Assembly (NCBI GenBank): GCA_018434355.1
Contig: JAHDPL010000020.1
Span: 182,255 to 246,254 of the forward strand
Source of the DNA: Sporomusaceae bacterium
Lineage (GTDB): Bacteria; Bacillota; Negativicutes; UBA1444
DNA length: 64,000 bases
Direction of reading: 5' to 3'
In this document: positions 4,833 to 61,991 of the stretch, piece by piece
How the letters are laid out: each line of letters opens with the position of its first letter
How positions within the stretch are numbered: position 1 is the stretch's first letter
Translations under genes and position numbers: made by a program
Notes under the pieces: generated by a model
The model's database searches: none
Seen by the model: only the letters and a program-made list of their open reading frames with translations
What the model was told of the DNA's origin: nothing

Positions 4833-4833
4833 C

Positions 4834-6609: not shown

Positions 6610-6624
6610 CTTCGCACCGTCCTC

Positions 6625-7236
6625 CTATACCCGGAAATAGGTGAGCGCCACGAGTCCGCTGACACTAAGCAGCGCACACAGGCCCCACGCAGCATACTGA
6701 CTGAACCTCTGGGCCCTCGGCCCGACGGTGATTCCCCAGGTGATCAGGAACGTCCACAGTCCGTTGGTCAGGTGGAATATCGCACAGACCAGACCCAGCG
6801 CGTGCAGGCCGAGAACAACCGGGTCGGCGAAGATCTTGGCCACCTTGTCAAAGGTCGTTACCTGTCCCAGCCCGGCGCCGCCGAAACGGAACAGCCAGAC
6901 ATGCCAGGAAACGAAAGCGATCGTGATGTAGGCCGTGATCCGTTGCAGGTAAAAATTCCAGTTACGAGCATAAGAATAGGCCAATACATTGTTTTTCGAC
7001 TCAAACGCAATCACAATTCCATACAAGCCATGAAACAACAGCGGCACGGCGATGAACAGGATTTCCAGCGCATACAACAGCGGCAAGCTTTGCAAAAAAG
7101 CCGTGGCCGCATCGAACGCTTTCGGGCCGACGATGGCCCGGCTGATTGTAAAAACATGCTCCAACAGGAAAAAGGTCAGTGGCACGACTCCCAGCAGGGA
7201 GTGTATCCGTTTCAGATAGAACTCATTGGTATTCAA
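6625..7236 (-). CDS. sdhC: Succinate dehydrogenase/fumarate reductase cytochrome b membrane anchor (Bacillus-type 5-TM SdhC)
   Basis: 203-aa, five-TM protein with conserved His residues, located immediately upstream of sdhA. Confidence 0.75.
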   Translation of the reverse strand: MNTNEFYLKRIHSLLGVVPLTFFLLEHVFTISRAIVGPKAFDAATAFLQSLPLLYALEILFIAVPLLFHGLYGIVIAFESKNNVLAYSYARNWNFYLQRITAYITIAFVSWHVWLFRFGGAGLGQVTTFDKVAKIFADPVVLGLHALGLVCAIFHLTNGLWTFLITWGITVGPRAQRFSQYAAWGLCALLSVSGLVALTYFRV

Positions 7237-7266
7237 CGCTGCATCCCCTCCTTGTTTTTGGGCCGA

Positions 7267-7827
7267 CTATTCCTGAACGTACGGGGCCTGGCCGACCTGA
7301 TAGAAATCCTTGCCGTCCGAGTCCATGACCACGATCGCCGGAAAATCTTCCACCGTCATGCTGGCGACCGCTTCCGGTCCCAGCTCGCCGTAGGCAAGGA
7401 CTTTGTATTCCTTGATCCGTTTGGCGATCAGGGCACCGGCGCCGCCGACCGCGGCAAAGTAAACTACGCCATGCTTTTTCATTGCGTCGATAACGGCCTG
7501 GCTGCGATTGCCTTTGCCAATCATGCCGCGCAGCCCCTGTTCAATCAGTCGCGGCGTGTAACTATCCATCCGACCGGAAGTGGTCGGTCCGGCGGAGCCG
7601 ATCGGCTCGCCCGGTTTGGCCGGCGACGGGCCGACATAATAAACGACCTGGTTTTTCAAGTCGACAGGCAGCGGCTGTCCCGCGTCCAGTGCTTCCACCA
7701 TCAGTTTGTGCGCAGCGTCGCGGGCAGCGATAATCGTGCCCGAAATCAACACGCTATCGCCGGCTTTCAGCGAGCGGGCGACGGATTCATCAAACGGCGC
7801 AGTGATACGAATCGGATGTTTTGCCAT
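7267..7827 (-). CDS. fumB: Class I (Fe-S) fumarate hydratase, beta subunit
   Basis: The track ORF is extended at the N-terminus. The true start is MAKHPIRITAPFDESVARSLKAGD, preceded by an aggagga RBS. Belongs to the Fe-S hydro-lyase tartrate/fumarate beta family. Confidence 0.85.
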   Translation of the reverse strand: MAKHPIRITAPFDESVARSLKAGDSVLISGTIIAARDAAHKLMVEALDAGQPLPVDLKNQVVYYVGPSPAKPGEPIGSAGPTTSGRMDSYTPRLIEQGLRGMIGKGNRSQAVIDAMKKHGVVYFAAVGGAGALIAKRIKEYKVLAYGELGPEAVASMTVEDFPAIVVMDSDGKDFYQVGQAPYVQE

Positions 7828-7841
7828 CTCTCCCACTCCTC

Positions 7842-8687
7842 CTACAACTCTACTTCGGCGTGCCGGGCCGCGTGACAGTTGATGTTGACCGCGACAGGCA
7901 AGCTGGCGATATGTGTGGGGTACCATTCAATATTCACTTTGAGAGCGGTAGTCCGGCCGCCCAAGCCTTGCGGACCGATGCCGGTCTTATTGATCAACTC
8001 GAGCAGTTCTTCTTCCAGCGCCGCATAACGCGGGTCGGCATTGCGACTTTCGATGTCGCGGGCTGCGGCGCGTTTGGCGCAAATCGCCGCCATTTCCATC
8101 GTGCCGCCAAGACCGACGCCGATGACCATCGGCGGGCAAGAGTTCGAACCGGCCGCCTTGACTACATCGACCACAAATTTTTTCACGCCGGCCACGCCAT
8201 CAGCCGGCACCATCATCTTCAGCGCACTCTTGTTTTCCGAGCCAGCCCCTTTGGGAGCCAGTTTGATTTTCACTTTGTCGCCGGGCACGATCCGGGTATG
8301 AATCACCGCCGGTGTGTTGTTCTTGGTGTTTGTGCGGTCAAACAGCGGCTCCGCCACGGCCGATTTACGCAAATAGTATTCGACATAACCCTTGGCGACT
8401 CCTGCATGGATGGCCTCGTCCAGCGCACCGCCGGTCAGGTGCACCTCCTGCCCGACATCGACAAACACGATGGCCAGACCGGTATCCTGGCAGATCGGCA
8501 TGTCCTCGTTTCGGGCAATGTCGGCATTCTCCAACAGTTGGCCCAAAATCTCCTGCCCGCTGGGGGAAGGTTCATTGGCGCGAGCTTTCTGAAACGCCTC
8601 ATAAACATCCTGCGGCAGATAACAGTTGGCCTGTTTGGCCAGTTGGGCAACGGCCTCCGTGATTGTCGACACCTGCAGCTCTCGCAT
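7842..8687 (-). CDS. fumA: Class I (Fe-S) fumarate hydratase, alpha subunit
   Basis: 281 aa containing ICQDTGLAIVFVDVGQEV and a C-terminal Cys ligand region (CHAARHAE), typical of the Fe-S hydro-lyase alpha subunit. Confidence 0.85.
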   Translation of the reverse strand: MRELQVSTITEAVAQLAKQANCYLPQDVYEAFQKARANEPSPSGQEILGQLLENADIARNEDMPICQDTGLAIVFVDVGQEVHLTGGALDEAIHAGVAKGYVEYYLRKSAVAEPLFDRTNTKNNTPAVIHTRIVPGDKVKIKLAPKGAGSENKSALKMMVPADGVAGVKKFVVDVVKAAGSNSCPPMVIGVGLGGTMEMAAICAKRAAARDIESRNADPRYAALEEELLELINKTGIGPQGLGGRTTALKVNIEWYPTHIASLPVAVNINCHAARHAEVEL

Positions 8688-8723
8688 ACGCTTCCCTTCT
8701 TTCCTGCTTATTTAATAATAAAT

Positions 8724-8783
8724 GACTATGCCTTTGACCGGAGGTTACTCACAACAAAAACTTTACCAGCCAAAGGCATAGTC
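8724..8783 (-). terminator. 13-bp perfect inverted repeat (gactatgcctttg ... caaaggcatagtc). Probable terminator of the DASS-transporter transcript and/or an operator in front of fumA.
   Basis: Seen directly in the sequence. In the minus sense it is followed by AUUUAUUAUUAAAU. It lies 36 nt upstream of the fumA start codon. Confidence 0.4.
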
Positions 8784-8792
8784 TATATTATT

Positions 8793-10196
8793 TTACCAGA
8801 GACCGACGATCTTCCACCAGAATGCGCCGAAGCCGATGAACACAACCAGGTTGACCAGCGAAATGATGAAACCGAGTTTCCACCAGGTCCCTTGCGGAAT
8901 ATAGCCCGAGCCGAAATAAATCGGCGCCGGTCCAGTCGCGTAGTGAGTGATGCCGCCGAACAGGGCGGAAATAACGCCCAGGCTCATCGCAGCCAAAAAC
9001 GGCGGCGCGCCGGCGCCCACCGCTACCGCCAGGAACGCGGCGTACATCGCGGTGACATGAGCCGACAGGCTGGCAAACGCATAATGCGAATACATATAGG
9101 CGATCAACAAAATCACCAGAGCGGTCATCCAGGGGATGCCGACGAGTGAACCGGCAATCAGCTTGGCGAACCAAGCGATGACGCCATACTTGGTCAGCGC
9201 ACTGGCTAGGCTGATCAGGCCGCCCATCCAGATTAGGGTATCCCAGGCGCCTTTTTCGGCCAGGATGTCTTTCCAGTCGATCGCCTTGCCGATCAGCATG
9301 ATGCCGACACCCAGCATGGCGACGATGGTTGCGTCGATTTTGGTGATGCTGCCGGTGGCCCAAAGGACCAGCGCCAACACGAACACGCCACTGACGATCT
9401 TTTCGCCGCTTGACATCGGTCCCATCTTTTCCAGTTCCTTGCGGGCGATTTCTTTCGCTTCCGGCGTCTTGTCGATTTCCGGCGGATAGATCTTATAAAG
9501 CAGATACGGCACAATTGCCAGCGAAATCAGGCCTGGCAGCACGGCAGCCAGCGCCCAGGTGCCCCAGCTGATCTGGACTTTGGCGGTTTGCAACGCCAGG
9601 ACCGCAACCAGCGTATTCGGCGCCACCGAAGTTAGAAACATCGCCGAAGTGATGGTGTTGCCCTGAAAAGCAGTCTTCATCAGATAAGCGCCGATTTTGC
9701 GCGACGAATCGCCCGGTTCGGAGCCGAAAGCCGAGCAGAGGCTGCGCACGATCGGATACATGATGCCGCCGGCACGGGCCGTGTTCGACGGGGTAGCCGG
9801 TGCGATGACCAGGTCGCTAAGTACCAGAGCGTAACCGAGTTTCAACGAGCTGTCGCCGATCGCGCCCATGATCTTGTAAGCGATCCGTTTACCGAGACCG
9901 GTTTTGATAAAGCCGAGCGCAAACAAAAACGCCGACACGATCAACCACATGATGCTCTGACCAAAGCCATTCAATGCTTCAGCCGGCGTCAGCGTCTTCG
10001 TCAAGCCGGCGATGCTGAGGGATATAAACGCAATCGCGCCAATGGGCAAAGGTTGAAGGATGAAACCGATGATGGTGGCGACAAAAATCGCCAGCAGATG
10101 CCAAGCCTGGGGCTTTAGCCCGGCCGGCGCAGGCAACAACCATAGGATAAGTCCGATAACAACCGCAATAAGTCCGTTTCTCAGGTCTTTGTTCAT
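8793..10196 (-). CDS. DASS-family (divalent anion:Na+ symporter / 2-oxoglutarate-malate translocator-like) dicarboxylate transporter
   Basis: 467-aa polytopic protein with two DASS-type SNT/ASN-like hairpin signatures (APATPSNTARAGG ... GPAPIYFGSGY). Confidence 0.8.
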   Translation of the reverse strand: MNKDLRNGLIAVVIGLILWLLPAPAGLKPQAWHLLAIFVATIIGFILQPLPIGAIAFISLSIAGLTKTLTPAEALNGFGQSIMWLIVSAFLFALGFIKTGLGKRIAYKIMGAIGDSSLKLGYALVLSDLVIAPATPSNTARAGGIMYPIVRSLCSAFGSEPGDSSRKIGAYLMKTAFQGNTITSAMFLTSVAPNTLVAVLALQTAKVQISWGTWALAAVLPGLISLAIVPYLLYKIYPPEIDKTPEAKEIARKELEKMGPMSSGEKIVSGVFVLALVLWATGSITKIDATIVAMLGVGIMLIGKAIDWKDILAEKGAWDTLIWMGGLISLASALTKYGVIAWFAKLIAGSLVGIPWMTALVILLIAYMYSHYAFASLSAHVTAMYAAFLAVAVGAGAPPFLAAMSLGVISALFGGITHYATGPAPIYFGSGYIPQGTWWKLGFIISLVNLVVFIGFGAFWWKIVGLW

Positions 10197-10371
10197 GAAT
10201 TCTCCCCCTTATATTTTTTCTTGTCCGTTTTGTTTCTTCGTTTGCCATGATATTTTTTTATCATGACAGGAAAAAACTGCAGAAAAAACTGGAATGAACC
10301 CCGAGGTAAAGACACCTGTCTACTGTTACTATAACATTCTGTCAGTTCAAATATCCAATAGATGACGAGAA

Positions 10372-10380
10372 TGATATAAT
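10372..10380 (+). promoter_or_regulatory. Extended -10 promoter element (TGaTATAAT) for the LysR gene, inside an AT-rich divergent intergenic region that is shared with the DASS transporter gene
   Basis: atgatataat lies 43 nt upstream of the ATG at 10423, and an RBS (agggaggga) follows it. Confidence 0.45.
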
Positions 10381-10422
10381 AAATAATTGTAATGATCCCA
10401 TGCTAACTTCAGGGAGGGACGT

Positions 10423-11325
10423 ATGGAAATCCGGCAATTGGAATACTTTGTTTCTGTGGTGGAAACCAATAGCTTTACCAAGGCGGCGGAAAAACAATAT
10501 GTCAGTCAGCCCTGCATCACTCACTCCATCCGCAAGCTGGAAGAAGAACTTGGCTTCGAACTGTTTGACCGCAGCCAGAAAAAGTCACCGTTGACGGATG
10601 AAGGCCGGCGATTCTATCTGCGCGCCTGCAATCTGCTGAATGAACTGCGCGACACGATGACGGAAATGAATGAACTGCGCAATCTGGCCCGTGGCACGAT
10701 CAACCTGGCCATCCCGCCGATGATCGGCAGTTGCCTGTTTCCGTATCTGTTCACCAGCTTTCAGACCCGCTACCCGCATCTGACGCTAAATGTCTGCGAA
10801 GAAGGGTCCTATTCGGCGCACCGGATGATCGAGCAGGAGGAGCTTGATCTCGGCATCATCATCTTGCCGCAGCACAATCCCGGCACGTTGGAAACCTTTT
10901 TCCTCACCCGGCAGGAAATCCTGCTGGCCGTCGCCAAAAACCATCGTCTGGCAAGTGCTTCTGCCGTGCCGTTTGCCGATTTGCGCCAGGAAAAATTCAT
11001 CCTGTTCAAGAGCAACTTTTTTCAACGGCACGCGATTTTGCAGCGCTGCCAGGACGAAGGAATCGAACCGGAAATCGTATTTAACTCCAGTCAGATCGAA
11101 ACGGTAAAATCGCTGGTTTCCCACGGCGTCGGCATCTCTTTCCTTATGCAGATGGCGTTGGAAGGACAGCCCGGCATCGCCGGCGTCTCGCTATATCCGC
11201 CGATCCATGTAAACATCGGCCTGGCCTGGAAAAAAGGCCGCCAGCTTTCTCCCTCGGCCAAGGCCTTTATCAATCTGGTATCGGCGCAGACAGAGGAAGC
11301 CCTGACCTTAAAAAAATGCCGCTGA
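10423..11325 (+). CDS. LysR-family transcriptional regulator
   Basis: The N-terminal HTH MEIRQLEYFVSVVETNSFTKAAEKQYVSQPCITHSIRKLEEELG is canonical for LysR. The gene is divergent from the transporter gene. Confidence 0.9.
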   Translation: MEIRQLEYFVSVVETNSFTKAAEKQYVSQPCITHSIRKLEEELGFELFDRSQKKSPLTDEGRRFYLRACNLLNELRDTMTEMNELRNLARGTINLAIPPMIGSCLFPYLFTSFQTRYPHLTLNVCEEGSYSAHRMIEQEELDLGIIILPQHNPGTLETFFLTRQEILLAVAKNHRLASASAVPFADLRQEKFILFKSNFFQRHAILQRCQDEGIEPEIVFNSSQIETVKSLVSHGVGISFLMQMALEGQPGIAGVSLYPPIHVNIGLAWKKGRQLSPSAKAFINLVSAQTEEALTLKKCR

Positions 11326-11326
11326 C

Positions 11327-11839
11327 TCAGCCCTGGCCGTACTGCTGTTTAATCAACGGCTTGATGCCGCCACTGGCCAGGATATTCATCACATACTCGG
11401 ATAGCGGCTGCGCCTGCATGGTTTCGCCGCTACTCAGGTTCGTGACCGTCCCTGTCGTCATGTCCAGGCTCAGGCTATCGCCCCGTTTGACTTTTTGACC
11501 GATACCGGGGCAGACAAGCAGCGGCACGCCTAGATTGATCGCATTGCGGTAAAAAATCCGTCCATAGGAATCGGCCAGGATCGCGCCGACGCCGGCGGCC
11601 TTCAGCGTCACCGCGGCGTGTTCACGGCTGGAGCCGCAGCCAAAGTTGGTGGAGGCAACGATCAAATCGCCTGGCTGAACTTCTTTGACAAAGTTTGGGT
11701 CAGCGCCTTCCATCGCATGTTTACCGACTTGGTCCGGGTCAGTGAGGTCGAGAAACCGGCCGGGATAAATTTGATCGGTATCGATGTTCGCTCCGTAAAC
11801 AAAGGCTTTGCCTTTCAATATCTGTTGCACGCTTTTCAC
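11327..11839 (-). CDS. Aconitase-family dehydratase small subunit (LeuD-like), paralog 1
   Basis: 170 aa containing DTDQIYPGRFL and [12 protein letters not shown]. Its start overlaps the large-subunit stop by 4 nt (ATGA). Confidence 0.85.
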   Translation of the reverse strand: MKSVQQILKGKAFVYGANIDTDQIYPGRFLDLTDPDQVGKHAMEGADPNFVKEVQPGDLIVASTNFGCGSSREHAAVTLKAAGVGAILADSYGRIFYRNAINLGVPLLVCPGIGQKVKRGDSLSLDMTTGTVTNLSSGETMQAQPLSEYVMNILASGGIKPLIKQQYGQG

Positions 11840-13095
11840 CCCTGCTTCAAGTATTCTGTCGGGTCAACGATTTTACCGGTCAGCGCAGCGGCAGCGACCG
11901 CCGCCGGCGAACCCAGGTAGATTTCGGCTTTGGGCGAACCCATGCGGCCGGGGAAATTGCGGCTTGATGCGGTGATACAGGTCTCGCCTGCCGCCAGCAT
12001 CCCTTCGTGCGTCCCCAGACAGGCGGCGCAGCCTGGCGTGACAAAGGTCGCCCCCGCTTCCACCAGCGTCTTCATCGTGCCGTTCGCCATTGCTTCCAGC
12101 AGCACTGCTTTGGACGCCGGCACCACGATGAACCGGGTGCGCGGGTTTATTTTTTTTCCCTGCAGGATTTTGGCCGCAATCGCCAGATCTTCGGCGCGGC
12201 CGCCGGTGCAGGTGCCAAGGAAGGCCTGGTTGACGGGAATCCCTGCGTATCTGGCCACCGGCGCTACGTTGTCGACGCTGTGCGGCGCGGCGATTTGCGG
12301 CGTCATGCCGGTTACGTCAAACGTGTGCTCCGCCGCATATTGATAGCCTGGGTCCGTCGTGAAAATTTCATATTCATGCTGCACTTTTCCCTGCAAAAAC
12401 TGCAGCGTGATCTCGTCTGGCTGGATATAGGCGGTTTTGGCGCCCAGTTCGGTGGTCATGTTGCAGAGGGCCATCCGCTCGGAAACGCTGAGTTGTTTCA
12501 GCACCGGCCCGGTAAATTCGACCCCGCGATACACGCCGTAGTCCGCGCCCAACGCGCCGATGACCTTAAGGATGATGTCTTTGGCGTAAACGCCCTGCGG
12601 CAACGTTCCTTCGAGATGAATCCGGATAATCTCGGGAATCCGGAACCATAGCTGTCCTGTCACCATGATGATCGCCAGGTCGGTGGCGCCGACGCCGGTG
12701 CCGAACGCACCGAACGCACCGTGAATCGTGGTGTGCGAATCGGTGATGACCAGTACCTGGCCGGGATAGACCAACCCTTTGTCGACCATGACCTGGTGGC
12801 AGACGCCCTGATCGACGTCCATCAGCAAGTCGATTCCCTGCTCCCAGCAAAATTCGCGGAACTGCTTCTGGTTGTCGGCCTGCATGATCGTGGACGCCGG
12901 CGCGTAGTGGTCGAGAAAAACCACGATCTTGTTCGGGTCATGGACTTTCTTGCCGCCCATCTCAAAAAACGAGCGCAGCGTCTGCAGATACAAATCGTTG
13001 ATTCCGGCCATATCGACCTTGCAATTGACAATCTCACCGGTTGTCACCGCCGCTTTGCCGGCGGCTTTGGCTAAGATTTTCTCTATCGCGTGCAT
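11836..13095 (-). CDS. Aconitase-family dehydratase large subunit (LeuC-like, short ~420-aa type), paralog 1
   Basis: The true start is MHAIEKILAKAAG, preceded by an AGGAGGG RBS; the track's N-terminal extension is rejected. Contains the DSHT, CNM and GCAACLG Fe-S motifs. Confidence 0.85.
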   Translation of the reverse strand: MHAIEKILAKAAGKAAVTTGEIVNCKVDMAGINDLYLQTLRSFFEMGGKKVHDPNKIVVFLDHYAPASTIMQADNQKQFREFCWEQGIDLLMDVDQGVCHQVMVDKGLVYPGQVLVITDSHTTIHGAFGAFGTGVGATDLAIIMVTGQLWFRIPEIIRIHLEGTLPQGVYAKDIILKVIGALGADYGVYRGVEFTGPVLKQLSVSERMALCNMTTELGAKTAYIQPDEITLQFLQGKVQHEYEIFTTDPGYQYAAEHTFDVTGMTPQIAAPHSVDNVAPVARYAGIPVNQAFLGTCTGGRAEDLAIAAKILQGKKINPRTRFIVVPASKAVLLEAMANGTMKTLVEAGATFVTPGCAACLGTHEGMLAAGETCITASSRNFPGRMGSPKAEIYLGSPAAVAAAALTGKIVDPTEYLKQG

Positions 13096-13195
13096 AACAA
13101 GCATCCCTCCTGACTTTTTTCCTGATTGGGGCGGGCAGTTCCGTTTCCTTTCCTGTCTACTCACACCTCCCCGCTTAATGTTCAACCACTATCTA

Positions 13196-13211
13196 TGCAA
13201 AAACAATGCCA
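13196..13211 (-). promoter_or_regulatory. Sigma-54 (-24/-12) promoter for the LeuCD-like operon
   Basis: Minus strand reads TGGCAT-tgttt-TTGCA, against the consensus TGGCAC-N5-TTGCA. It lies about 100 nt upstream of the start codon at 13095, and a sigma-54 activator gene is divergent from it. Confidence 0.7.
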
Positions 13212-13242
13212 ATCGTCAAAATCGGCTATTTTCGCAATACTC

Positions 13243-13278
13243 CGCAAAATTTTTGTTGCATTGAAACAATTTTTGCGG
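13243..13278. promoter_or_regulatory. Inverted repeat ccgcaaaa-N20-ttttgcgg; candidate enhancer (UAS) for the adjacent sigma-54 activator
   Basis: 8-bp arms seen directly, about 30-70 bp upstream of the -24 element. Confidence 0.35.
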
Positions 13279-13322
13279 TATTTTTGTTTTATAATGTTTT
13301 ATTTTGTTTCAGGAGGTAGCCG

Positions 13323-15203
13323 ATGATTAGCTTTCTTGCCCCTGACGGAAAAATATTCGCCACTGCCAAAACTACCCTTGCCGCCTCGCACCCTGACATT
13401 CGGATCGAACAGGGACTGCTCAGCGCCGGGGTCGAAAAAGCTGGAGAGCTGATTGACGCCGGAACAGAAATCATCATCAGTCGCGGCGGCACCGCCAAGG
13501 CGATCAAAGACGCCTTTCCGGCGATTATCGTGGTCGAACTGCCGATTACCGGCTTTGACATTCTGCGCACCGTCGACCAGGCTCGCAGGCTTGGCGGACG
13601 GATTGGCGTTGTCGCCTTTGCTTCGATGGTTGCCGGCATCGACTGCCTGCCGTCAATTCTCGGCGTTGAGCTATGTCAGTATCCGATTGAAAACGAATTC
13701 GAAGCCGAAGCCAAAGTACTGCAGGCCCGCCGCGATGGCGCCGAAGTCATTATCGGCGGTGTCATCACCGGCCAAACCGCCCGCAAACACAATCTGCCGC
13801 ACGTATTGATCGAGAGCGGCGGCGAAGGAATCCTGCAGGCAGCGCTGGAATCGAAGCGGATTTATGCAGCCCGCCTGGCCGAGAAAGTAAAAAGCAGCCT
13901 GTTCCGCACCGTGCTCGACTATTCCTACGAAGGCGTCATATCGATCAATCAGGACCGCCAGGTCGTCATCTGCAATCCGGCGGCAAGCAACCTCAGCGGT
14001 CGCAAGCAGGCGGAAACGCTCGGTCAGCCGATTGACAAGGTGTTGCCGCGGTTAAAATTGGAGCGAGTTCTGGCAACCGGCCAGCAAGAGTTGGGCCAGA
14101 TCATCGAGCTCGGCGGCAGCCAAATCCTCTGCAACAAAATTCCGATTCTGGTCGGCGGTCGCATCGCCGGCGCGGTGGCCACCTTTCAAGAAACTGGTAA
14201 GATCCAGCAATGGGAGGCCGCCATCCGCAAAAAAATCTATGCCGGTGGTCACATCGCTTCGTTTCAGTTCAGCGACATCATCGGCGCCAGCCCGGCAATC
14301 CAGGAAGCGATCAGCATGGCCCGCGAATTTGCCATCACCGACGCATCGGTGCTGATTACCGGTGAAACCGGCGTTGGCAAGGAAGTTTTCGCGCAAAGCA
14401 TCCACAACGCTAGTCCGCGCGCGCCAAAACCGTTTGTGGCAATCAACTGTGCAGCCTTGCCTGCTCAGATCCTTGAAAGCGAGTTGTTTGGTTACATGGG
14501 CGGCGCCTTCACCGGCGCCAACCCTAAAGGGAAATCCGGTTTGCTTGAAATCGCCCATGGCGGCAGTTTGTTTCTAGACGAAATCGCTGAAATGGATTAT
14601 GGCATCCAAAGCAAACTGCTGCGGGTGATCCAGGAAAAACGGGTGATGCGGCTTGGCAGCGACCGGGTCCTGCCGGTAGATGTCCGAATTATCGCCGCCA
14701 CCAACAAGAATCTCAAAACCCTAATTCTCGAGCAGAAATTTCGCGCCGACCTGTATTATCGGCTAAACGTACTTCGGCTCAACCTGCCGCCGCTACGGGA
14801 ACGCCGGCAGGATATCCCGCTGTTCGCCCGCCACCTGCTGAGTCGCAATGAAAAAGCAGCTCACCGCAAACTGCACTGGGGACCGGACGCCCTGGAACGA
14901 CTTGTCCGGAACGAATGGCCAGGCAATGTACGGGAGCTGCAAAATATCGTGGAACGGATCGTGGCGGTCTGCAAGCAGGATTACATCTCTGCCGAATTGA
15001 TCAGTCGCGTGATGCGGGATGACGACGATAAACCGGAAACCTCTGCCGCTGCCTGGTCGCCTTTCGACGAACACGAAACGATCCGGCAGGCGCTGGACCA
15101 AACCCATGGCCGATTGGCGGCCGCAGCCGAGTTGCTTGGCGTCAGTCGTTCGACGTTGTGGCGAAAAATGAAAACCCTGGGACTCAGTCCGCGCCGCCGC
15201 TGA
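13323..15203 (+). CDS. Sigma-54-dependent transcriptional activator with a PrpR-type N-terminal sensor domain, a PAS domain, an AAA+ domain and a C-terminal HTH
   Basis: 626 aa. The N-terminal 200 aa resemble the propionate-regulator sensor domain. AAA+ sigma-54 interaction motifs are present (GETGVGKE, GAFTGA, ESELFGY), and the C-terminus carries an HTH (LLGVSRSTLWRKMK). Confidence 0.85.
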   Translation: MISFLAPDGKIFATAKTTLAASHPDIRIEQGLLSAGVEKAGELIDAGTEIIISRGGTAKAIKDAFPAIIVVELPITGFDILRTVDQARRLGGRIGVVAFASMVAGIDCLPSILGVELCQYPIENEFEAEAKVLQARRDGAEVIIGGVITGQTARKHNLPHVLIESGGEGILQAALESKRIYAARLAEKVKSSLFRTVLDYSYEGVISINQDRQVVICNPAASNLSGRKQAETLGQPIDKVLPRLKLERVLATGQQELGQIIELGGSQILCNKIPILVGGRIAGAVATFQETGKIQQWEAAIRKKIYAGGHIASFQFSDIIGASPAIQEAISMAREFAITDASVLITGETGVGKEVFAQSIHNASPRAPKPFVAINCAALPAQILESELFGYMGGAFTGANPKGKSGLLEIAHGGSLFLDEIAEMDYGIQSKLLRVIQEKRVMRLGSDRVLPVDVRIIAATNKNLKTLILEQKFRADLYYRLNVLRLNLPPLRERRQDIPLFARHLLSRNEKAAHRKLHWGPDALERLVRNEWPGNVRELQNIVERIVAVCKQDYISAELISRVMRDDDDKPETSAAAWSPFDEHETIRQALDQTHGRLAAAAELLGVSRSTLWRKMKTLGLSPRRR

Positions 15204-16458
15204 CCAGCCGCGGCACAGTGAGGCTACCCATCGGCATCAGTGTGATCGACGGCGCCGGTCCGAGTTTGGCATACGCCAGCGCCAGCGCTTCCTGCATGTC
15301 TTTGGCCGGCGTAAACAGCAACATCCTGGCAAAATCGGGGTCCATACCGGAGACCAGAATGAATTCAGCCTTTTTCATCAAGCGGGTCACCGCATACGCC
15401 TTGTGAGCGCCGATCTGGAAGTCTTGCCGCACCGTAGCTTCCACTGCTTCCGGCGTGCCGCACTGCAGCATCATTTTTTCATACTGCGCCGAACCGGATC
15501 CTTCCTCACATTCGCCGAGGATGATCACTACGCCGCCTTCTCGGACAGCGCACCAAGCGTTGTCCATTGTTTTTTGCAGCTGATAGATGTTGATGTCTTT
15601 CGGATAGCCGCCGCAGGAAGCGATGACCAAGTCGGTTTCCTGCCGGATCGGCGCGCCGTAAACCTCATCGACGAAGGCGCAGGCTTCGCGGTGGGCGTTG
15701 ATGTAATGTCCGGCAAACACCTTCAGGAACTGTTTTTCTTCATTCAATACGACATTCAGCAAGAACGAAGGGCGACACATCTCGGCCCCCTCGATCTGGT
15801 CGTGATAGATCGGGTTGCCGTCAAGTTTGCCGATCACCGCGTTCGGATCAAACATCATGCTGTGATTCTTGCGGATGGTTTCGTAAGCCGCCACGCCGGG
15901 AAACAACGCCTTGCGTCCGCCGCCAAAGCCGGAAAAGAAATGGTGCACTACGCTGCCGGTCAGGATGATGTGGTCGGCTTCCGCCACTTTCTTATGGAAA
16001 TAGACCGGCGTCCCGCGCGAGGTCTCGCCAAAATACTGGAACTGCGACGGATCTTTGCAGTCGCTGTTGAACATTTTGATTTTCGCCGCGACATCGGCGC
16101 CGACTTCTTCGATCATCTCGGCTTCCGTCATCAAGCGGTGGCTGCCGAGCGCAAACACGATGCACATATCATCGTACGGCACGCCGACCGCATGGATTTC
16201 GTCAATCAAGACAGGCAGAAAGACATGGGTGTTTGCCACCCGGGTCGGGTCATTGACAATAAACGCGACGGTTTGCCCTGGACTCACGATCTCCCATAGC
16301 GGCGCCGCGCCGATCGGTTCGCGGATCGCCGCCTCCACCGCCGCGACCGGGTCCGCCAGCACCGGATAATCCTTGATTGCCAGTTCCGCCTTGACGAGTG
16401 CCGGGTCGAGCGAAAACTCCATCTGCCCATGACCATACTTGTAATGATACTGTTTCAT
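15184..16458 (-). CDS. LarA-family (nickel-pincer-nucleotide-dependent) 2-hydroxyacid racemase/epimerase homolog
   Basis: About 424 aa with a LarA-like N-terminal domain (DUF2088-type). The start was moved to MKQYHY. Its 3' end overlaps the convergent activator gene by 20 bp. Confidence 0.7.
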   Translation of the reverse strand: MKQYHYKYGHGQMEFSLDPALVKAELAIKDYPVLADPVAAVEAAIREPIGAAPLWEIVSPGQTVAFIVNDPTRVANTHVFLPVLIDEIHAVGVPYDDMCIVFALGSHRLMTEAEMIEEVGADVAAKIKMFNSDCKDPSQFQYFGETSRGTPVYFHKKVAEADHIILTGSVVHHFFSGFGGGRKALFPGVAAYETIRKNHSMMFDPNAVIGKLDGNPIYHDQIEGAEMCRPSFLLNVVLNEEKQFLKVFAGHYINAHREACAFVDEVYGAPIRQETDLVIASCGGYPKDINIYQLQKTMDNAWCAVREGGVVIILGECEEGSGSAQYEKMMLQCGTPEAVEATVRQDFQIGAHKAYAVTRLMKKAEFILVSGMDPDFARMLLFTPAKDMQEALALAYAKLGPAPSITLMPMGSLTVPRLVSGGAD

Positions 16459-16535
16459 GCGCACCGCCCCTTTTCGTTTTCATCAAGGGGTTACAATTAG
16501 TAACCCACCTAAACGCTTCTTCTGATTCCTGGTTA

Positions 16536-17273
16536 TTACGCCTCGTTCCGCCAGCCAATCAAGTCCTTGATCACTTCACCAGCCAAAATCAAGCCCGCCA
16601 CCGACGGCACAAATGAAATGCTGCCAGGAATCTGCCTACGTGAACTGCCGGCAGGAAATTGCTCCGTCGTTGCCAGCGGTTCCAGCGGCTTTTCCCGCGA
16701 ATATACCACTTTCAACGACTGTACGCCGCGGGCTCGCAGCTCATAACGCATCACTTTCGCCAGCGGACACATGCTGGTTTTATAAATATCCGCCACCTCG
16801 AACCGAGTCGGGTCCAGCTTATTGCCGGCGCCCATACAGCTAATTACAGGAATGCCTTTTGCCTGGCTTCGCACGATCAGGTCGATCTTGGCGCTGACCG
16901 TGTCAATCGCGTCCACGATGTAGTCATATTTTTCGCCGAAGAATTCCGCGGAATTCTCCGGCAAGTAGAACTTTTGAATGGTGGTGACCGCAGCCCGCGG
17001 ATTGATTTCCAGCACCCGCTCCCGCATCACCTCGACCTTCACTCGCCCCACCGTGCGCGTCGTAGCATGCAGTTGCCGGTTGAGATTGGTCAGGCAGATG
17101 CAGTCGTCATCAACCAGGGTCAATCCGCCTACGCCGGCGCGGGCCAGCGCTTCCACCGTAAAACTGCCGACGCCGCCGATGCCGAACACCGCCACCCGGC
17201 TGCCGACGAGTTTTTCCATCGCCGCCGCGCCAAGCAATAATTCGGTCCGTGAAAAAGCGTGCAATTCAGCCAT
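16536..17273 (-). CDS. tcdA: tRNA threonylcarbamoyladenosine dehydratase (ThiF/MoeB E1-like fold)
   Basis: Contains VAVFGIGGVGSFTVEALARAGVGGLTLVDDDCICLTNLNRQ. Confidence 0.75.
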   Translation of the reverse strand: MAELHAFSRTELLLGAAAMEKLVGSRVAVFGIGGVGSFTVEALARAGVGGLTLVDDDCICLTNLNRQLHATTRTVGRVKVEVMRERVLEINPRAAVTTIQKFYLPENSAEFFGEKYDYIVDAIDTVSAKIDLIVRSQAKGIPVISCMGAGNKLDPTRFEVADIYKTSMCPLAKVMRYELRARGVQSLKVVYSREKPLEPLATTEQFPAGSSRRQIPGSISFVPSVAGLILAGEVIKDLIGWRNEA

Positions 17274-17720
17274 TTACTCTTGCGCCCCGTTTGCCTTCTT
17301 ACGGGCATCGCCGGTAACATAAAACGTCGTTTTTCCTGCCGCGACCAGCGCCCCTTCACGGTTGCGGACTTCAACCGATCCGTTCGCAATCCGCTTCCCC
17401 TGAAAAACCACTCGCGCCGTGGCTGTCAGTTCGGTATCCAGCGCCACCTTGTCAAAATAATTCGTCGAAGTCTCGATTGTCACCAAATAAATCTGCAGCG
17501 TCCTCAGCGCCACCCCGGTCGCCATATCGACCAGCGCCGCCACCACGCCGCCATGGCCGATGCCATAGGTGTTGGCGTATTCCGGTCGCATCCTCAGCTT
17601 GACTTCGGCTTCGCCCCGCGCCAGCCGGACCACCCGCGCACCGAGAAACTGAAAAAACGGCACAGCGGCGTAATGCGCTTGCAAATCAGCCAAAAATTCC
17701 TTGTCATCCATTTGTTGCAC
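17274..17720 (-). CDS. PaaI/hotdog-fold acyl-CoA thioesterase
   Basis: 148 aa containing the YGIGHGGVVAALVDMATG motif. Directly abuts tcdA. Confidence 0.75.
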   Translation of the reverse strand: MQQMDDKEFLADLQAHYAAVPFFQFLGARVVRLARGEAEVKLRMRPEYANTYGIGHGGVVAALVDMATGVALRTLQIYLVTIETSTNYFDKVALDTELTATARVVFQGKRIANGSVEVRNREGALVAAGKTTFYVTGDARKKANGAQE

Positions 17721-17721
17721 C

Positions 17722-18624
17722 TTATTTCCCTCCTGTTGCAGCCGCGCGTGTTGTCAGCAGTACGCCCGACATAACGCATAGCATCCCTACGCCGTGAACC
17801 AGCGTCACCGGTTCGCCGTAAAACAAAACCGCAATCAGCACCGCACTGACCGGCATCAGGTTGATGTAGGCGCTGGCCTTGCTGGCGCCGATTTCACGAA
17901 CGCCGATATTGAAAATCAAGAAAGCGATGAATGTTGCCCCGACTGCCAGATACATCAGTTCCAGCATCACTTGCAGCGACACTCCCGGCAAGCGGTTCCA
18001 GCCCTGCTCCGGCAACGATGCCGCCGCCAGCAGCAAAGCGCCGAGCAGCATCGAAACCGCTGTAGATAAAAGCGGCGATACCTTGCGCATCACTAGCTTG
18101 CTCAGAATCGCATAGGTCGTCCAGAGCAATACCGCGCCAAGCAACAGCAAATCGCCGCGGTTTAGCGACAACCCCCGAAGCACGTCCATGTCGCCGCGAG
18201 TAATCACGACCAGCACGCCGCTCATTGACAGCGCCGCACCGATGCCCTGCCGCCAACTCCAACGTTCGCCAAAAAACAGCACCGCGACAAGCGAGGTCGT
18301 CACCGGGTTGATTACGATCACCAGTGCGCCATTGATTGCCGAAGTGTATTGCATACCGATGTTGAACAACGCATTATAGCCGAAGATGCCAAAGACGGCC
18401 AGCATCAGCAAAGCAAACCATGACTCGCGAATCGTCCGCCACTGCCACTCGCCGCGCCAGCAGGCCCAACCGCTCATCAGCAACCCGGCCAATAAAAAAC
18501 GCACCGCCGCCACAGTCAGCGGCGGCAACTCGGTCAACACATGCTTGGTCGAACCAAATGCGCCGCCCCAAAATAGCGGCGCCAATAACATCAACAGATA
18601 AATCCCCGCACGATTTTTCGCCAA
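17722..18624 (-). CDS. EamA/DMT-family transporter
   Basis: 300 aa with a ten-TM pattern and two EamA repeats. Confidence 0.8.
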   Translation of the reverse strand: MAKNRAGIYLLMLLAPLFWGGAFGSTKHVLTELPPLTVAAVRFLLAGLLMSGWACWRGEWQWRTIRESWFALLMLAVFGIFGYNALFNIGMQYTSAINGALVIVINPVTTSLVAVLFFGERWSWRQGIGAALSMSGVLVVITRGDMDVLRGLSLNRGDLLLLGAVLLWTTYAILSKLVMRKVSPLLSTAVSMLLGALLLAAASLPEQGWNRLPGVSLQVMLELMYLAVGATFIAFLIFNIGVREIGASKASAYINLMPVSAVLIAVLFYGEPVTLVHGVGMLCVMSGVLLTTRAAATGGK

Positions 18625-18658
18625 CCAAAACCTCTCTTTCCGCCGACTCCTCAGACAA

Positions 18659-19501
18659 TCACCGATTCCAGTCCAGCATCAAATATGACCCAAGATTCTT
18701 AAACCAAAGACTGCGCTGCTCGACAGCCTGCAGGACCGCTTGAATCCTCGCCTCGCCTAAGCCGCCTTCCATGTCCAAAAAGAACAGATAGGCGCCAAGT
18801 CCGGTTCGGGCCGGTCGAGACTCGATCTTGGTCAGGTTGACTTCCCGTTCGGCAAATTCGGCCAATATGTGGTAAAGGCTGCCGGGGCGAGAGCCGTCAA
18901 TCTGACAGACAATCGATGTTTTCCAGCGACCGGGCAGCCGGGAGTCCAGCGGCTGGATTTGCAGCGTGACAAACCGCGTACAGTTGCTACTGGTGTCCTG
19001 AATATCGGCGGCAACCATTTCCAGGCTATAGAGTGCAGCCGCACTGCGACTGCCGATCGCCGCCATGCCCGCTTCGCCCTCGGCGACCCGTCGGGCAGCT
19101 TCTGCGGTACTATCGACCGGCCTCAGTTCGGCGGCTGGATACAGCCGCGACAAAGTGCGCCGGCACTGCGCCAACGCTTGCGGATGCGACAACACCAACC
19201 GAATGTCCCTGCCAACCTCCCGGGCCAGCAAATTGTGCCGAATCGGCATAACTATTTCCCGTGAAATAAACAGTTCCACTTCATGCGCCAAGGTATCCAG
19301 CGTAACATTGACCGACCCTTCGACCGAGTTTTCGATCGGCACGACGCATTGCGAGATTTCTCCGCCGGCCACCGCCCGAATGGCCAGATCGATCGAACCA
19401 AACGGCGTCAAGCATGCTGATTCGCCAAACAGATTCTTTGCCACTTCTTCGCTATAGGTGCCCGGTGGCCCCAAAAAGCCGACTCGTTTCCCGTTAGCGG
19501 C
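18659..19501 (-). CDS. pheA: Prephenate dehydratase
   Basis: PDT domain (VGFLGPPGTYSEEVA ... TRF, ESRP) followed by a C-terminal ACT domain. Start taken at MAANGKRVGFLG. Confidence 0.8.
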   Translation of the reverse strand, partial: AANGKRVGFLGPPGTYSEEVAKNLFGESACLTPFGSIDLAIRAVAGGEISQCVVPIENSVEGSVNVTLDTLAHEVELFISREIVMPIRHNLLAREVGRDIRLVLSHPQALAQCRRTLSRLYPAAELRPVDSTAEAARRVAEGEAGMAAIGSRSAAALYSLEMVAADIQDTSSNCTRFVTLQIQPLDSRLPGRWKTSIVCQIDGSRPGSLYHILAEFAEREVNLTKIESRPARTGLGAYLFFLDMEGGLGEARIQAVLQAVEQRSLWFKNLGSYLMLDWNR

Positions 19502-19556
19502 CATTTCACTATTGTTCAAAGGCCCGTCGCCCCTTTCGTTTGCGGTATACAGGCCT

Positions 19557-30062: not shown

Positions 30063-30568
30063 TATGATTTCCTCCCGCTGCTAATGTTCAGTTCCTGACG
30101 AACCCGATTAATCAGACCGCCCGCTCGAATCGTCGCCAGAACGTTTTCCGACAACGGCTGTCCGTTTAACACACCGGTCGCAGTATGAATCTCGCCTGTT
30201 TCCAGGTCTACGCTCACGACTTCGCCATTCTGCAGTTTTGCGCCGACATCCGCCAACATCACCGGCAAACCGATATTGATCGAATTGCGCCGGAAAATCC
30301 GCGCGAACGAGTTGGCGATAATCATGCCGACCCCGGCGCTTTTCAGCGCAACCGGCGCTTGCTCGCGACTAGATCCGCAACCGAAGTTCTTGCCGGCCAC
30401 GATGATGTCCCCCGCTTGAACCTGTTTGGCAAAATCGGCAACCTTGCTGCCGGCCATGGCAAATGCAGCCAGTTTGGAAGCATCTTCGGCCATGGCATAT
30501 CCCGGCAGGATCTGATCGGTATCGACATTGTCGTCAAAAATCCATACCCTTCCCTGTAGCTTGTCCAT
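30062..30568 (-). CDS. dmdB: Aconitase-family dehydratase small subunit (LeuD-like), paralog 2; candidate dimethylmalate dehydratase small subunit
   Basis: The true start is [23 protein letters not shown] (the track's N-terminal extension is arginine-rich junk). Contains [12 protein letters not shown]. Confidence 0.8.
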
Positions 30569-30569
30569 T

Positions 30570-43297: not shown

Positions 43298-43313
43298 TGC
43301 AAATAGCGTGCCA
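43298..43313 (-). promoter_or_regulatory. Sigma-54 promoter (perfect -24/-12 consensus) for the nicotinate-fermentation operon
   Basis: Minus strand reads TGGCAC-gctat-TTGCA, about 70 nt upstream of the ndhF start. Confidence 0.8.
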
Positions 43314-54099: not shown

Positions 54100-54117
54100 C
54101 AAATTTCCCTCCAAGGT

Positions 54118-55326: not shown

Positions 55327-55358
55327 ACTATCCCTCCCCCGGTAATCATCGCTTGCTG

Positions 55359-61952: not shown

Positions 61953-61991
61953 GTTTTTTCCTCCTGACATGCATACTACATTCTATGCTTT

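Follow-up and report, generated by a model that had tools for sequence, protein, structure and literature searches.

A stretch of 64,000 nucleotides from a Sporomusaceae genome (GenBank assembly GCA_018434355.1, contig JAHDPL010000020.1; hereafter, the window) carries a leuC-leuD-like gene pair at 11327-13095 on the minus strand, together with genes for a sigma-54-dependent activator and a LarA-family homolog. The results of this analysis suggest that the pair probably encodes an inducible catabolic hydro-lyase for a C4-dicarboxylate, coupled to a LarA of the malate-racemase type. The substrate that we favour, at a probability of roughly 40%, is meso-tartrate, in which case the pair would be a dehydratase forming oxaloacetate and LarA would act as a tartrate epimerase. 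It is a slightly more tentative proposal that this uncharacterised branch of the aconitase superfamily and the LarA epimerase constitute a third route of anaerobic tartrate fermentation, one on which the stereoisomers converge and which hydrolases in other lineages may extend to epoxysuccinate. A first-pass annotation of the same DNA had already proposed that the pair is a hydro-lyase under the control of sigma-54 and an activator with a PrpR_N sensor, and that it serves the catabolism of a hydroxy or unsaturated dicarboxylate; this proposal is supported here. What had been overlooked is tartrate-type chemistry with oxaloacetate as the product, which is a better fit to the variable partners of the module.

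The genes of the window were identified by listing open reading frames (ORFs) and searching them against Pfam and NCBIfam profiles, and all genes named earlier were found in their places. The large-subunit gene (11836-13095, minus strand; Pfam Aconitase, 321 bits) begins at an ATG preceded by an AGGAGGG ribosome-binding site, and the length from that ATG is 419 aa rather than the 420 aa given before. The small-subunit gene (11327-11839, minus strand; 170 aa; Pfam Aconitase_C) has a GTG start that overlaps the stop codon of the large-subunit gene, and the two form a two-gene unit. The LeuC-like protein keeps the DSHT motif and the three cluster-ligating Cys residues (in GTCTGGR and GCAACLG), and the LeuD-like protein, when aligned to 3VBA and 2PKP, keeps the GCGSSREHA motif. 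Since the cluster ligands and the catalytic motifs are intact, the pair should be an active, intact two-subunit [4Fe-4S] hydro-lyase.

Profile scores assign the pair to the archaeal-type isopropylmalate isomerase (IPMI)/homoaconitase branch of the aconitase superfamily: the LeuC-like subunit exceeded the broad subfamily cut-offs of PRK00402 (529.8 against 385), TIGR01343 (505.5 against 385.7) and TIGR02086 (501 against 410.15), and the LeuD-like subunit exceeded that of TIGR02087 (182.7 against 108.95). Neither the equivalog cut-offs for LeuC (TIGR02083, 423.3 against 610.65; TIGR00170, 244.9 against 560.25) nor those for LeuD (TIGR02084, 172.4 against 245.85; TIGR00171, 58.9 against 116.25) were reached; the LeuC-like subunit stayed below the HacA_Meth cut-off (419 against 550), all other HacA/HacB equivalog models failed likewise, and the pair scored far beneath every aconitase equivalog cut-off of NCBIfam. 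The best solved matches of the pair (377 and 191 bits, the former to the IPMI large subunit) are the Methanocaldococcus jannaschii enzymes, namely the IPMI/citramalate isomerase (4KP1/4NQY, 3VBA) and homoaconitase (4KP2, 2PKP), which have the same two-subunit architecture of ca. 420 + 170 aa, the same Fe-S Cys ligands, and the same DSHT and GSSRE catalytic-serine motifs. Unlike these biosynthetic enzymes, the pair stands in a catabolic, inducible and transporter-linked setting, and it differs from them at two specificity-related sites. The small-subunit loop, which reportedly selects the substrate side chain according to published mutagenesis work, reads F-L-D-L in the LeuD-like protein as against Y-L-V-Y in M. 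jannaschii IPMI and Y-L-R-T in homoaconitase. The large subunit reads AGINDLYLQT where IPMI has AMVHDITGP and where canonical LeuC, HacA and DmdA have xxHD[IV]T(G/A)P.

Both features characterise the relatives of the pair. Of 49 locus copies, 47 carried the large-subunit signature AG[IV]ND[LI]YLQT, 46 of these being orthogroup members, and so did 116 of the 116 database matches in which the stretch was located among the best 120 hits; the exceptions among the locus copies are one without a located motif and two outliers, at 43% identity, of another family. Across the orthogroup, the small-subunit loop follows [FY][LV][DEQAS]x, with D/E in most members and Q/A/S rarely. On these sequence grounds, the pair represents a sharply defined subfamily of its own, which is neither biosynthetic LeuCD nor HacAB nor the DmdAB of nicotinate (nic) fermentation. 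Homologs that are 65-96% identical occur in Negativicutes (including Veillonella), Sulfurospirillum and other Campylobacterota, Desulfovibrionaceae, Nitrospirota, Synergistota and Clostridia (e.g. Geosporobacter), and this spread over many phyla suggests a mobile catabolic module. In public annotation, the relatives are called 3-isopropylmalate dehydratase and those of LarA lactate racemase, while the JGI annotation of the former is '(R)-2-methylmalate dehydratase'. Our literature searches found no paper describing the operon, the enzyme subfamily, or its coupling to a malate-racemase-type LarA. The kinds of component (aconitase-family hydro-lyase, LarA, sigma-54 activator and DASS carrier) are all known, and the subfamily, its signature, the operon and the LarA coupling are undescribed in the papers that these searches reached.

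Inducibility is indicated by the region upstream of the pair. The sequence TGGCATTGTTTTTGCA, 100 nt 5' of the LeuC-like ATG (13211-13196, minus strand), matches the sigma-54 (-24/-12) pattern TGGCAT-N5-TTGCA exactly and is where the first-pass annotation had placed it. When one mismatch was allowed, the pattern matched 7 times in the window against 6.55 expected, i.e. at chance level; the three exact matches are all intergenic and all 5' of minus-strand operons. The exact promoter is also found in the region that separates the activator gene from the start of the operon in 11 orthologous loci of other genomes (L001, L003, L004, L006, L007, L009, L010, L014, L015, L035 and L050), and a version with one mismatch in three more (L005, L043 and L063). 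An intergenic alignment of 15 orthologous loci revealed a probable activator-binding region (upstream activating sequence) at 13255-13311, in which three TGAAAC/TAAAAC repeats in 10-nt phase (13311-13286) and the element GTTTCAATGCAAC (13267-13255) are conserved; these are likely activator sites. The -24 GG/-12 GC spacing, the upstream sites and the conservation among orthologs together identify TGGCATTGTTTTTGCA as a predicted sigma-54 promoter. Scans for sigma-70 promoters and terminators over 10.1-16.7 kb gave nothing above chance.

The activator gene (13323-15203, plus strand) is divergent from the pair and encodes a 626-aa protein with PrpR_N, PAS, AAA+ and Fis-type helix-turn-helix (HTH_8) domains in Pfam. 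Full-length orthologs occupy the same position in Sporolituus (62% identity) and Anaerospora (54%), and the activators are orthologous across operons that differ in gene content. The activator very probably turns on leuC-leuD when its sensor binds an acid of the pathway. The control by a PrpR-type protein proposed earlier holds for the domain architecture: like PrpR, the activator combines PrpR_N, AAA+ and a Fis-type helix-turn-helix and is divergent from a target operon with a -24/-12 promoter. Unlike PrpR, it has an extra PAS domain and a LeuCD-like target, no prp genes such as prpBCD were found nearby, and both PrpR equivalog cut-offs were missed (TIGR02329, 358.7 against 499.2; NF011953, 332.2 against 703), on which ground genuine PrpR/2-methylcitrate regulation was rejected. 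A soluble chemoreceptor, in which a PrpR_N sensor is fused to an MCP domain, is encoded inside the LeuCD operons of Anaerospora hongkongensis (L070, 10999-12084) and a sewage relative of the window (L005, 8867-9934). A ligand shared between the sensors of this chemoreceptor and of the activator was considered and found no support, as they are only 26-27% identical.

The LarA homolog of the window (15184-16458, minus strand; 424 aa; Pfam Lar_N, 208.6 bits, and LarA_C, 78.6 bits) had been described as lying downstream of the activator. The two genes do adjoin; they are, however, convergent, overlapping tail to tail by 20 bp (15184-15203), and larA is the last gene of another minus-strand run, pheA-eamA-thioesterase-tcdA-larA. 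Since there is no terminator-like structure between the activator and LarA genes at this overlap, transcription of one may interfere with the other. The best solved match of the LarA homolog is Mar2 (6D6Z; 330 bits, 39% identity), and it keeps the catalytic His/His/Lys and the cofactor-binding Arg/Lys/His (equivalents of R75, H108, H174, K184, H200 and K298), so that it is predicted to be a member of the LarA superfamily of the nickel-pincer 2-hydroxyacid racemase/epimerase type. The malate-racemase group is marked by His/Gln plus Lys at the positions of LarA W358/T359 (PMC11770544) and by Gln before the catalytic Lys (PMC7583248); the window protein has both features (G-A-H-K-A and Y-Q-L-Q-K). 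It shares the catalytic and cofactor residues, this Gln and the His-Lys pair with Mar2/LarAH6 and LarAH62 and, unlike Mar2, has His-Phe-Phe in place of His-Tyr-Lys in a loop.

LarAH62 is the malate racemase of Sporomusa termitida, for which D-malate is the best substrate (6.3e5 M-1 s-1; PMC11770544). As its proxy we used protein P0212 of S. aerivorans: its N-terminus matches the LarAH62 cloning primer (M-S-QKKYTYKYG), it shares 70% identity with the window LarA, and its gene lies in an MFS-LarA-malic enzyme unit. The window LarA fell short of the NCBIfam malate-racemase cut-offs (446 against 500 for the LarAH6 family; 377 against 462 for the LarAH5 family). Because P0212 misses the malate-racemase model in a similar manner (456 against 500), the cut-off does not cover this clade and the miss is uninformative. 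A racemase of hydrophobic 2-hydroxyacids (LarAH10/LarAH66; scores of 441 against 446) was considered and rejected, since the H-K signature and the N-terminus of the LarAH62 primer fit and that of the LarAH66 primer (M-A-E-T-V-F-E-F) does not.

The functional tie between LarA and the pair, which had been proposed from the window, is seen in its relatives and not within the window itself. In all close relatives, a second LarA paralog, 72-74% identical to the window LarA, opens the sigma-54 operon; such in-operon paralogs read T-H-R or A-H-K in the W358/T359 region. The window lacks a 1335-nt segment that holds the second LarA in L001 (window 13096-13192 against L001 3192-4526): homology between the two breaks off shortly behind the promoter and sets in again precisely at the leuC start codon. 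The operon of the window is thus a reduced form, in which the in-operon LarA was lost and the convergent copy kept, a point missed in the first-pass annotation. The outer copy is conversely missing in L003, L004, L006, L007 and L035. The two paralogs belong to a single family with all copies from Negativicutes (67-80% mutual identity, 39% to Mar2); its members have in common His plus Lys/Arg at the W358/T359 positions, Gln before the catalytic Lys and the His-Phe-Phe loop. In Desulfovibrionaceae a different malate-racemase lineage, of the LarAH6 type, is linked to the pair. Since two independent malate-racemase lineages are linked to it, the LeuCD-LarA coupling arose at least twice.

We counted the features within 8 kb of the pair in 62 loci, and the pair always stands in carboxylate-catabolic settings. 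Regulators are the PrpR_N sigma-54 activator (23 loci) and a LysR protein (26), and carriers are DASS (26), TctA (3) and 2HCT (4) transporters. A LarA-family gene was found in 23 loci, a class I fumarase/tartrate-dehydratase-like pair in 18, fumarate reductase in 10 and a D-2-hydroxyacid dehydrogenase in 7; OadA-like oxaloacetate decarboxylase alpha, RraA-like proteins and enolase-superfamily dehydratase homologs occurred in 3 loci each, malic-enzyme family proteins in 2, and an Mdh/Ldh family protein in 1. The remaining partners are an alpha/beta hydrolase of the fluoroacetate-dehalogenase/epoxide-hydrolase type (16 loci) and a HAD type II hydrolase (3). The link to DASS, fumarase and fumarate reductase that had been proposed from the window alone is therefore recurrent.

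The arrangements themselves vary. In sewage relatives of the window, tcdA-LarA-activator(-) is followed by LarA'-LeuC-LeuD-LysR(-) and DASS-FumAB-SdhCAB, where LarA' denotes the second paralog, and in Sporolituus thermophilus and Thermosinus carboxydivorans the activator is divergent from DASS-LarA-LeuC-LeuD-DASS. In L050, the activator is divergent from DASS-LeuC-LeuD-OadA, which is followed by a second activator, a fumarase-like pair, DASS and OadA. In Anaerospora hongkongensis (L070), it is divergent from OadA-DASS-FumC-HAD type II-LeuC-LeuD, with the PrpR_N chemoreceptor behind, and nearby a LysR gene is divergent from DASS-enolase-superfamily dehydratase-HPP-OadA. A Desulfovibrio (L047) has LeuC-LeuD-alpha/beta hydrolase-Mdh/Ldh-DASS-LarA-FumA-FumB-FrdAB, with a LarA of the LarAH6 type (494 bits against a cut-off of 500). 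Minimal operons contain only a transporter and LeuCD: in L015 the activator is divergent from TctBA-LeuCD-TctC followed by an enolase-superfamily protein, and in L022 it precedes LeuCD-2HCT. Acid-sugar dehydratase homologs of the enolase superfamily thus accompany the pair in L015 and L070. In L017, DASS and a genuine TtdAB (479 against 365 bits) lie 5' of LeuCD, from which one divergent gene separates them, and in Veillonella a LysR gene divergent from a fumarase-like pair-DASS is followed by a LysR gene divergent from LeuCD-alpha/beta hydrolase. L052 (Synergistaceae), in which CitE-CitF and a small CitD-sized ORF stand directly 5' of the pair (5280-9381) and whose small-subunit loop is F-L-S-E, is the sole context that points to a citrate- or citramalate-type substrate.

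Enzymes of the aconitase family eliminate water in the anti sense from (2R,3S)-2-hydroxy-3-X-succinates to give cis (maleate-type) alkenes; in the known cases X may be isopropyl, CH2COO-, CH2CH2COO- or methyl, or, with maleate/D-malate, H. With X = OH the compound is (2R,3S)-tartrate, namely meso-tartrate; the Cahn-Ingold-Prelog descriptors were checked and are preserved on substitution. Based on this stereochemistry and the contexts above, it is hypothesised that the LeuCD-like enzyme would dehydrate meso-tartrate to cis-enol-oxaloacetate, which would tautomerise to oxaloacetate. The nickel-pincer LarA would invert C2 and convert L- and D-tartrate to meso-tartrate, so that one dehydratase would serve all three isomers. 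Oxaloacetate would then be reduced to malate and converted via class I fumarase and fumarate reductase to succinate, or, in other genomes, be decarboxylated instead, and DASS would exchange the substrate for succinate, as in the tartrate fermentation of enterobacteria. The organism of the window would rely on the convergent LarA paralog after the loss of the in-operon copy, and the dehalogenase/epoxide-hydrolase-like partners could feed tartrate into the pathway from epoxysuccinate.

Several observations are consistent with this hypothesis. The polar residues Asn, Tyr and Asp/Glu, which replace His, Thr and Val/Arg, would fit a hydroxyl substituent. Since dehydration of meso-tartrate yields oxaloacetate, the transporter-LeuCD-OadA and transporter-LeuCD operons are accounted for, as is the Mdh-family gene of L047; the OadA operons L050 and L070, the L047 operon and the minimal operons L015 and L022 are complete only if the product is oxaloacetate, and L047 encodes every step from tartrate via oxaloacetate, malate and fumarate to succinate. 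Meso-tartrate as the substrate would likewise explain why TtdAB, fumarase-like and enolase-type dehydratase modules adjoin the pair. Malate racemases including LarAH62 also act on L- and D-tartrate, which they turn into meso-tartrate by epimerisation (3.5e3 and 1.1e4 M-1 s-1; PMC11770544), and because tartrate epimerisation is a measured side activity of this group, LarA may act as a tartrate feeder.

The closest functional parallels are E. coli ttdR-ttdAB-ttdT and Salmonella ttdBAU/dtuAB with oadGAB. They share with the proposed pathway a DASS carrier (E. coli TtdT is annotated as an L-tartrate:succinate antiporter), a regulator, and an Fe-S dehydratase that forms oxaloacetate, from which malate, fumarate and succinate are made and/or which is handled by oxaloacetate decarboxylase. 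Their dehydratase belongs to the class I fumarase superfamily (Fumerase/Fumerase_C) and the pair to the aconitase superfamily, so that the pair would be an analog and not a member; their regulator TtdR is of the LysR type, whereas the pair of the window is under a sigma-54 activator and has LarA added. The proposed enzyme would use meso-tartrate, which inhibits known enzymes of the enterobacterial type. Class I fumarase uses (S,S)-tartrate and L-tartrate dehydratase the (R,R)-isomer, both are merely inhibited by meso-tartrate, and class I fumarase and TtdAB each accept one malate and one tartrate isomer (bioRxiv 10.1101/2023.06.17.545066). By analogy, the LeuCD-like enzyme may well perform both C4 reactions. 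The known enzymes form trans alkenes, as opposed to the cis alkenes of the aconitase family. Salmonella, which has TtdAB and DtuAB, does not ferment meso-tartrate; tartrate there feeds fumarate respiration and oxaloacetate decarboxylase.

Several points weigh against meso-tartrate, an assignment that is drawn from context and stereochemical analogy and put at no more than the probability given at the outset. To our knowledge, no enzyme of the aconitase family dehydrates tartrate, and the wide distribution of the subfamily contrasts with the rarity of meso-tartrate in nature. Some members have Q, A or S in place of the acidic loop residue. No malate dehydrogenase gene, oadA or larBCE was found in the 64-kb window, and no sigma-54 site was found 5' of the window LarA gene, so that co-regulation of the convergent gene with leuCD is not indicated. 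LarAH62 favours malate over tartrate 60- to 180-fold (PMC11770544), its likely ortholog adjoins a malic enzyme gene, and the LarA link is explained at least as simply by D-malate. D-2-hydroxyacid dehydrogenase genes stand directly 5' of the pair in five loci and fit D-malate better, and the citrate-lyase genes in L052 do not speak for tartrate either. Finally, many of the 62 loci are close relatives, and their counts are phylogenetically non-independent.

The main rival, raised in the first-pass annotation, is a maleate hydratase coupled to a malate racemase, by which maleate would be converted to D-malate by the LeuCD-like enzyme and to L-malate by LarA, followed by fumarase/fumarate reductase or malic enzyme. 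It is a live candidate; we consider it unlikely, however, and not the best reading. Hydration of maleate to D-malate is on record for LeuCD-type enzymes: M. jannaschii IPMI, the closest solved homolog, catalyses it according to Drevland 2007, as cited in PMC8307300. The malate-racemase signature of the window LarA, its identity to the proxy of an enzyme that prefers D-malate, and the two malate-racemase lineages tied to the pair all agree with this route; LeuCD, LarA, FumAB, Frd and DASS of L047 and of the clade of the window form an unbroken chain; and the D-2-hydroxyacid dehydrogenase (with an RraA-like decarboxylase) 5' of the pair in L029, L037 and L057 would oxidise D-malate. On the other hand, the route would not be closed in operons with OadA or only a transporter and with no enzyme that converts D-malate (L050, L070, L015, L022 and those of the Sulfurospirillum/Veillonella type), the Mdh-family gene of L047 would not be needed, the repeated adjacency to tartrate-dehydratase-type modules would be unaccounted for, and the conserved polar residues at the side-chain site would have no obvious role if the substituent were H. 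Besides, maleate is not known to be commonly available as a substrate in anaerobic habitats of the gut, the mouth or sewage. HbzIJ of Pseudomonas alcaligenes is reportedly a LeuCD-like maleate hydratase (EC 4.2.1.31), said to be of the long bacterial LeuCD type and to serve an aerobic gentisate pathway. It resembles the pair at the family level only, as a two-subunit LeuCD-like enzyme that connects an unsubstituted C4 cis-dicarboxylate with a (2R)-hydroxy acid; such an activity would explain the malate-racemase link and leave the OadA, Mdh and Ttd-like partners unexplained.

It is distinctly improbable that the pair acts on C5 branched acids, as an isomerase-hydratase for citraconate, (R)-citramalate or 3-methylmalate in the breakdown of citraconate, citramalate or acids derived from itaconate, with LarA epimerising C2 of 3-methylmalate and the fumarase working as a mesaconase. 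The closest solved homolog is indeed an isopropylmalate/citramalate isomerase, the JGI label of the relatives is in line with such a substrate, CitE- and CitF-type genes of citrate or citramalate lyase precede the pair in L052, and the Phe-Phe of the LarA loop is more hydrophobic than the Tyr-Lys of Mar2. Class I fumarases can also be mesaconases, and L-threo-3-methylmalate is a known C5 substrate of that route (PMC4682846). Nevertheless, the hydrophobic Val/Tyr of the IPMI loop is exchanged for Asp/Glu plus Leu/Phe, lyase or CoA-transferase genes accompany the pair only in L052, and the OadA, Mdh and Frd partners indicate C4 products. LarA inverts C2 by hydride transfer from C2-H (PMC7583248), so that citramalate and 2,3-dimethylmalate, tertiary alcohols that lack a C2-H, are ruled out as its substrates, and with them the racemisation of citramalate proposed in the first-pass annotation.

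A two-subunit aconitase for the use of citrate, isocitrate or aconitate is less probable again. The DASS, TctABC and 2HCT partners include classic citrate carriers, OadA is an enzyme characteristic of citrate fermentation, L052 has citrate lyase genes 5' of the pair, and Sporolituus is a citrate fermenter. An analogous cluster that is itself uncharacterised, ybhD-ybhH-ybhI-ybhJ of E. coli K-12 (L073, 799622-805764), encodes a LysR regulator, a PrpF-family isomerase, a DASS carrier and an aconitase-family 'putative hydratase', the same plan of regulator, dicarboxylate carrier and aconitase-superfamily enzyme as in the window. The pair, however, has an acidic residue where homoaconitase has the loop Arg proposed to bind the distal carboxylate, and this residue should repel a tricarboxylate; the scores are far under every aconitase cut-off; the LarA link would be left unexplained; and apart from the citrate lyase of L052, no citrate lyase or isocitrate dehydrogenase genes were found with the pair.

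Least probable of all is a biosynthetic LeuCD for leucine/isoleucine or a salvage enzyme for intermediates of nicotinate fermentation: although relatives bear the public name 3-isopropylmalate dehydratase and a complete, itself sigma-54-controlled E. barkeri-type nic cluster lies 11 kb away, leucine biosynthesis is ruled out, as the first-pass annotation had concluded, by the failed equivalog cut-offs, the altered specificity residues and the context (no leuA or leuB among the annotated ORFs of the window, a few ORFs elsewhere in it being unannotated; an activator-dependent sigma-54 promoter; co-transcription with transporters, LarA and OadA in relatives), and the nic salvage it had offered as an option, or a second DmdAB, falls with the low identity to the DmdAB-like pair of the window (37% for the large and 42% for the small subunit), the occurrence of the module in Sulfurospirillum, Veillonella, Desulfovibrio and Synergistota, where the fetched flanks are free of nic genes, and the tertiary-alcohol nature of the nic intermediates, which LarA cannot use. 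3-Hydroxyaspartate, whose ammonium group could pair with the acidic loop residue, is a minor possibility, and no supporting genomic context was found for it in the loci compared. The remaining probability falls to something else.

On the other side of the pair lie the LysR gene and the dicarboxylate genes that had been reported there (4077-11325). The LysR-type regulator (10423-11325, plus strand; Pfam HTH_1 and LysR_substrate) reached no NCBIfam equivalog cut-off, and a comparison with TtdR (24% identity over 120 residues) was uninformative. Its gene is convergent with leuD-like and divergent from a minus-strand operon of DASS, class I fumarase and sdh/frdCAB, which is its probable target; its position is preserved in close relatives of the window. 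The DASS-family di/tricarboxylate transporter (8793-10196; Na_sulph_symp, 556.6 bits; TIGR00785) is encoded by the first gene of this operon. It is 76% identical to the DASS within the LeuCD operon of L010, 63-69% to those of L050, Sporolituus and Thermosinus, and 39-40% to each of E. coli TtdT, CitT and YbhI, and the DASS proteins as a group are 38-40% identical to TtdT; naming a substrate from the carrier was given up because this equidistance is uninformative. The two-subunit class I (Fe-S) fumarase, with its alpha subunit at 7842-8687 and its beta subunit within 7267-7926 (Pfam Fumerase/Fumerase_C, minus strand), clears the NCBIfam cut-offs (NF004885, 412.7 against 276; NF005310, 273.7 against 238). 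The true beta start is probably later than the ORF start because the gene calls of relatives give 186 aa (L064). The succinate dehydrogenase/fumarate reductase CAB genes (4077-7236, minus strand; Pfam) encode the cytochrome b subunit (6625-7236), the flavoprotein (4834-6609) and the Fe-S subunit (4077-4832). The sdhCAB order next to the LeuCD module is kept in L005, L007, L009, L043 and L063-L066, and in L047 fumarate reductase and LeuCD are in one operon.

A distinct family of class I fumarase-like paralogs was found at L050 13777-20073, L014 12343-17211, L039 4795-8730 and L045 91-4057. Its members are 74% identical between Sporomusaceae and Veillonella and 48-49% identical to the fumarase of the window, with the beta subunit below the equivalog cut-off, and they carry their own DASS, OadA in L050, and a second PrpR_N activator or a LysR regulator. 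This family may be a D-tartrate (DtuAB-like) module. The alpha/beta hydrolase gene stands directly after leuD in 16 loci (L016, L018, L019, L021, L025, L026, L031-L034, L039-L041 and L045-L047) and the HAD type II hydrolase gene directly before leuC in L048, L051 and L070. The two partner families have unrelated folds and occur in different lineages, and both use an Asp nucleophile. The alpha/beta hydrolases retain the carboxylate-binding Arg pair, and the halide-site residues of the HAD type II proteins appear altered; both folds include epoxide hydrolases, and cis-epoxysuccinate hydrolase is among the HAD type II matches.

On the same strand as LarA, genes for prephenate dehydratase (pheA), an EamA transporter, a hotdog thioesterase and a tcdA-like protein of the ThiF family occupy 16536-19519 (minus strand), and the pheA-eamA-thioesterase-tcdA order is kept in relatives with or without the outer LarA copy. 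The nic cluster (24754-45214) is complete and comprises dimethylmalate lyase-like, MutL-like, PrpF-like, B12 mutase, DmdAB-like and serine-dehydratase-like hydratase genes, as well as those for a dehydrogenase, an enamidase-like protein, an Fe-S reductase and a four-part molybdenum hydroxylase. A sigma-54 activator of its own is encoded at 43634-45214, and an exact sigma-54 promoter lies at 43298-43313 (minus strand). Its DmdAB-like pair (30062-31772, E. barkeri type) is also a small LeuCD-like pair in a sigma-54-controlled catabolic cluster; unlike the pair discussed here, it has the loop Y-A-M-A and the canonical SHDVTAP motif, and its context is different. The nearness of the LeuCD-like module to the nic cluster appears to be coincidental. 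The third exact sigma-54 promoter (61992-62007, minus strand) precedes a serine-dehydratase-alpha-like gene (60651-61970), with pyridoxal-phosphate enzymes, an M20 peptidase and an amidohydrolase further downstream (52741-58201), and looks like that of another sigma-54-controlled catabolic operon.

Thousands of proteins of this subfamily in databases bear the label '3-isopropylmalate dehydratase', and their carriers are anaerobes of the gut, the mouth, sewage and sediments (Veillonella, Pyramidobacter, Sulfurospirillum, Desulfovibrio and Sporomusaceae). The operon is present in the cultured strains Sporolituus thermophilus, Thermosinus carboxydivorans, Anaerospora hongkongensis and Veillonella ratti, so that the hypothesis is directly testable. 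We know of genes for L- and D-tartrate dehydratases and of none for a meso-tartrate dehydratase, nor did our literature searches find one; if the substrate is meso-tartrate, the pair would fill this long-standing gap and add a new type of reaction to the aconitase family. If it is maleate, the pair would define a route of anaerobic maleate/D-malate respiration. The cellular role of malate-racemase-type LarA is an open question in the papers that characterise these enzymes, and, if the coupling is true, these widespread enzymes would gain a physiological pathway. Should the subfamily be shown to be a separate, inducible catabolic enzyme, a systematic mis-annotation would be corrected.

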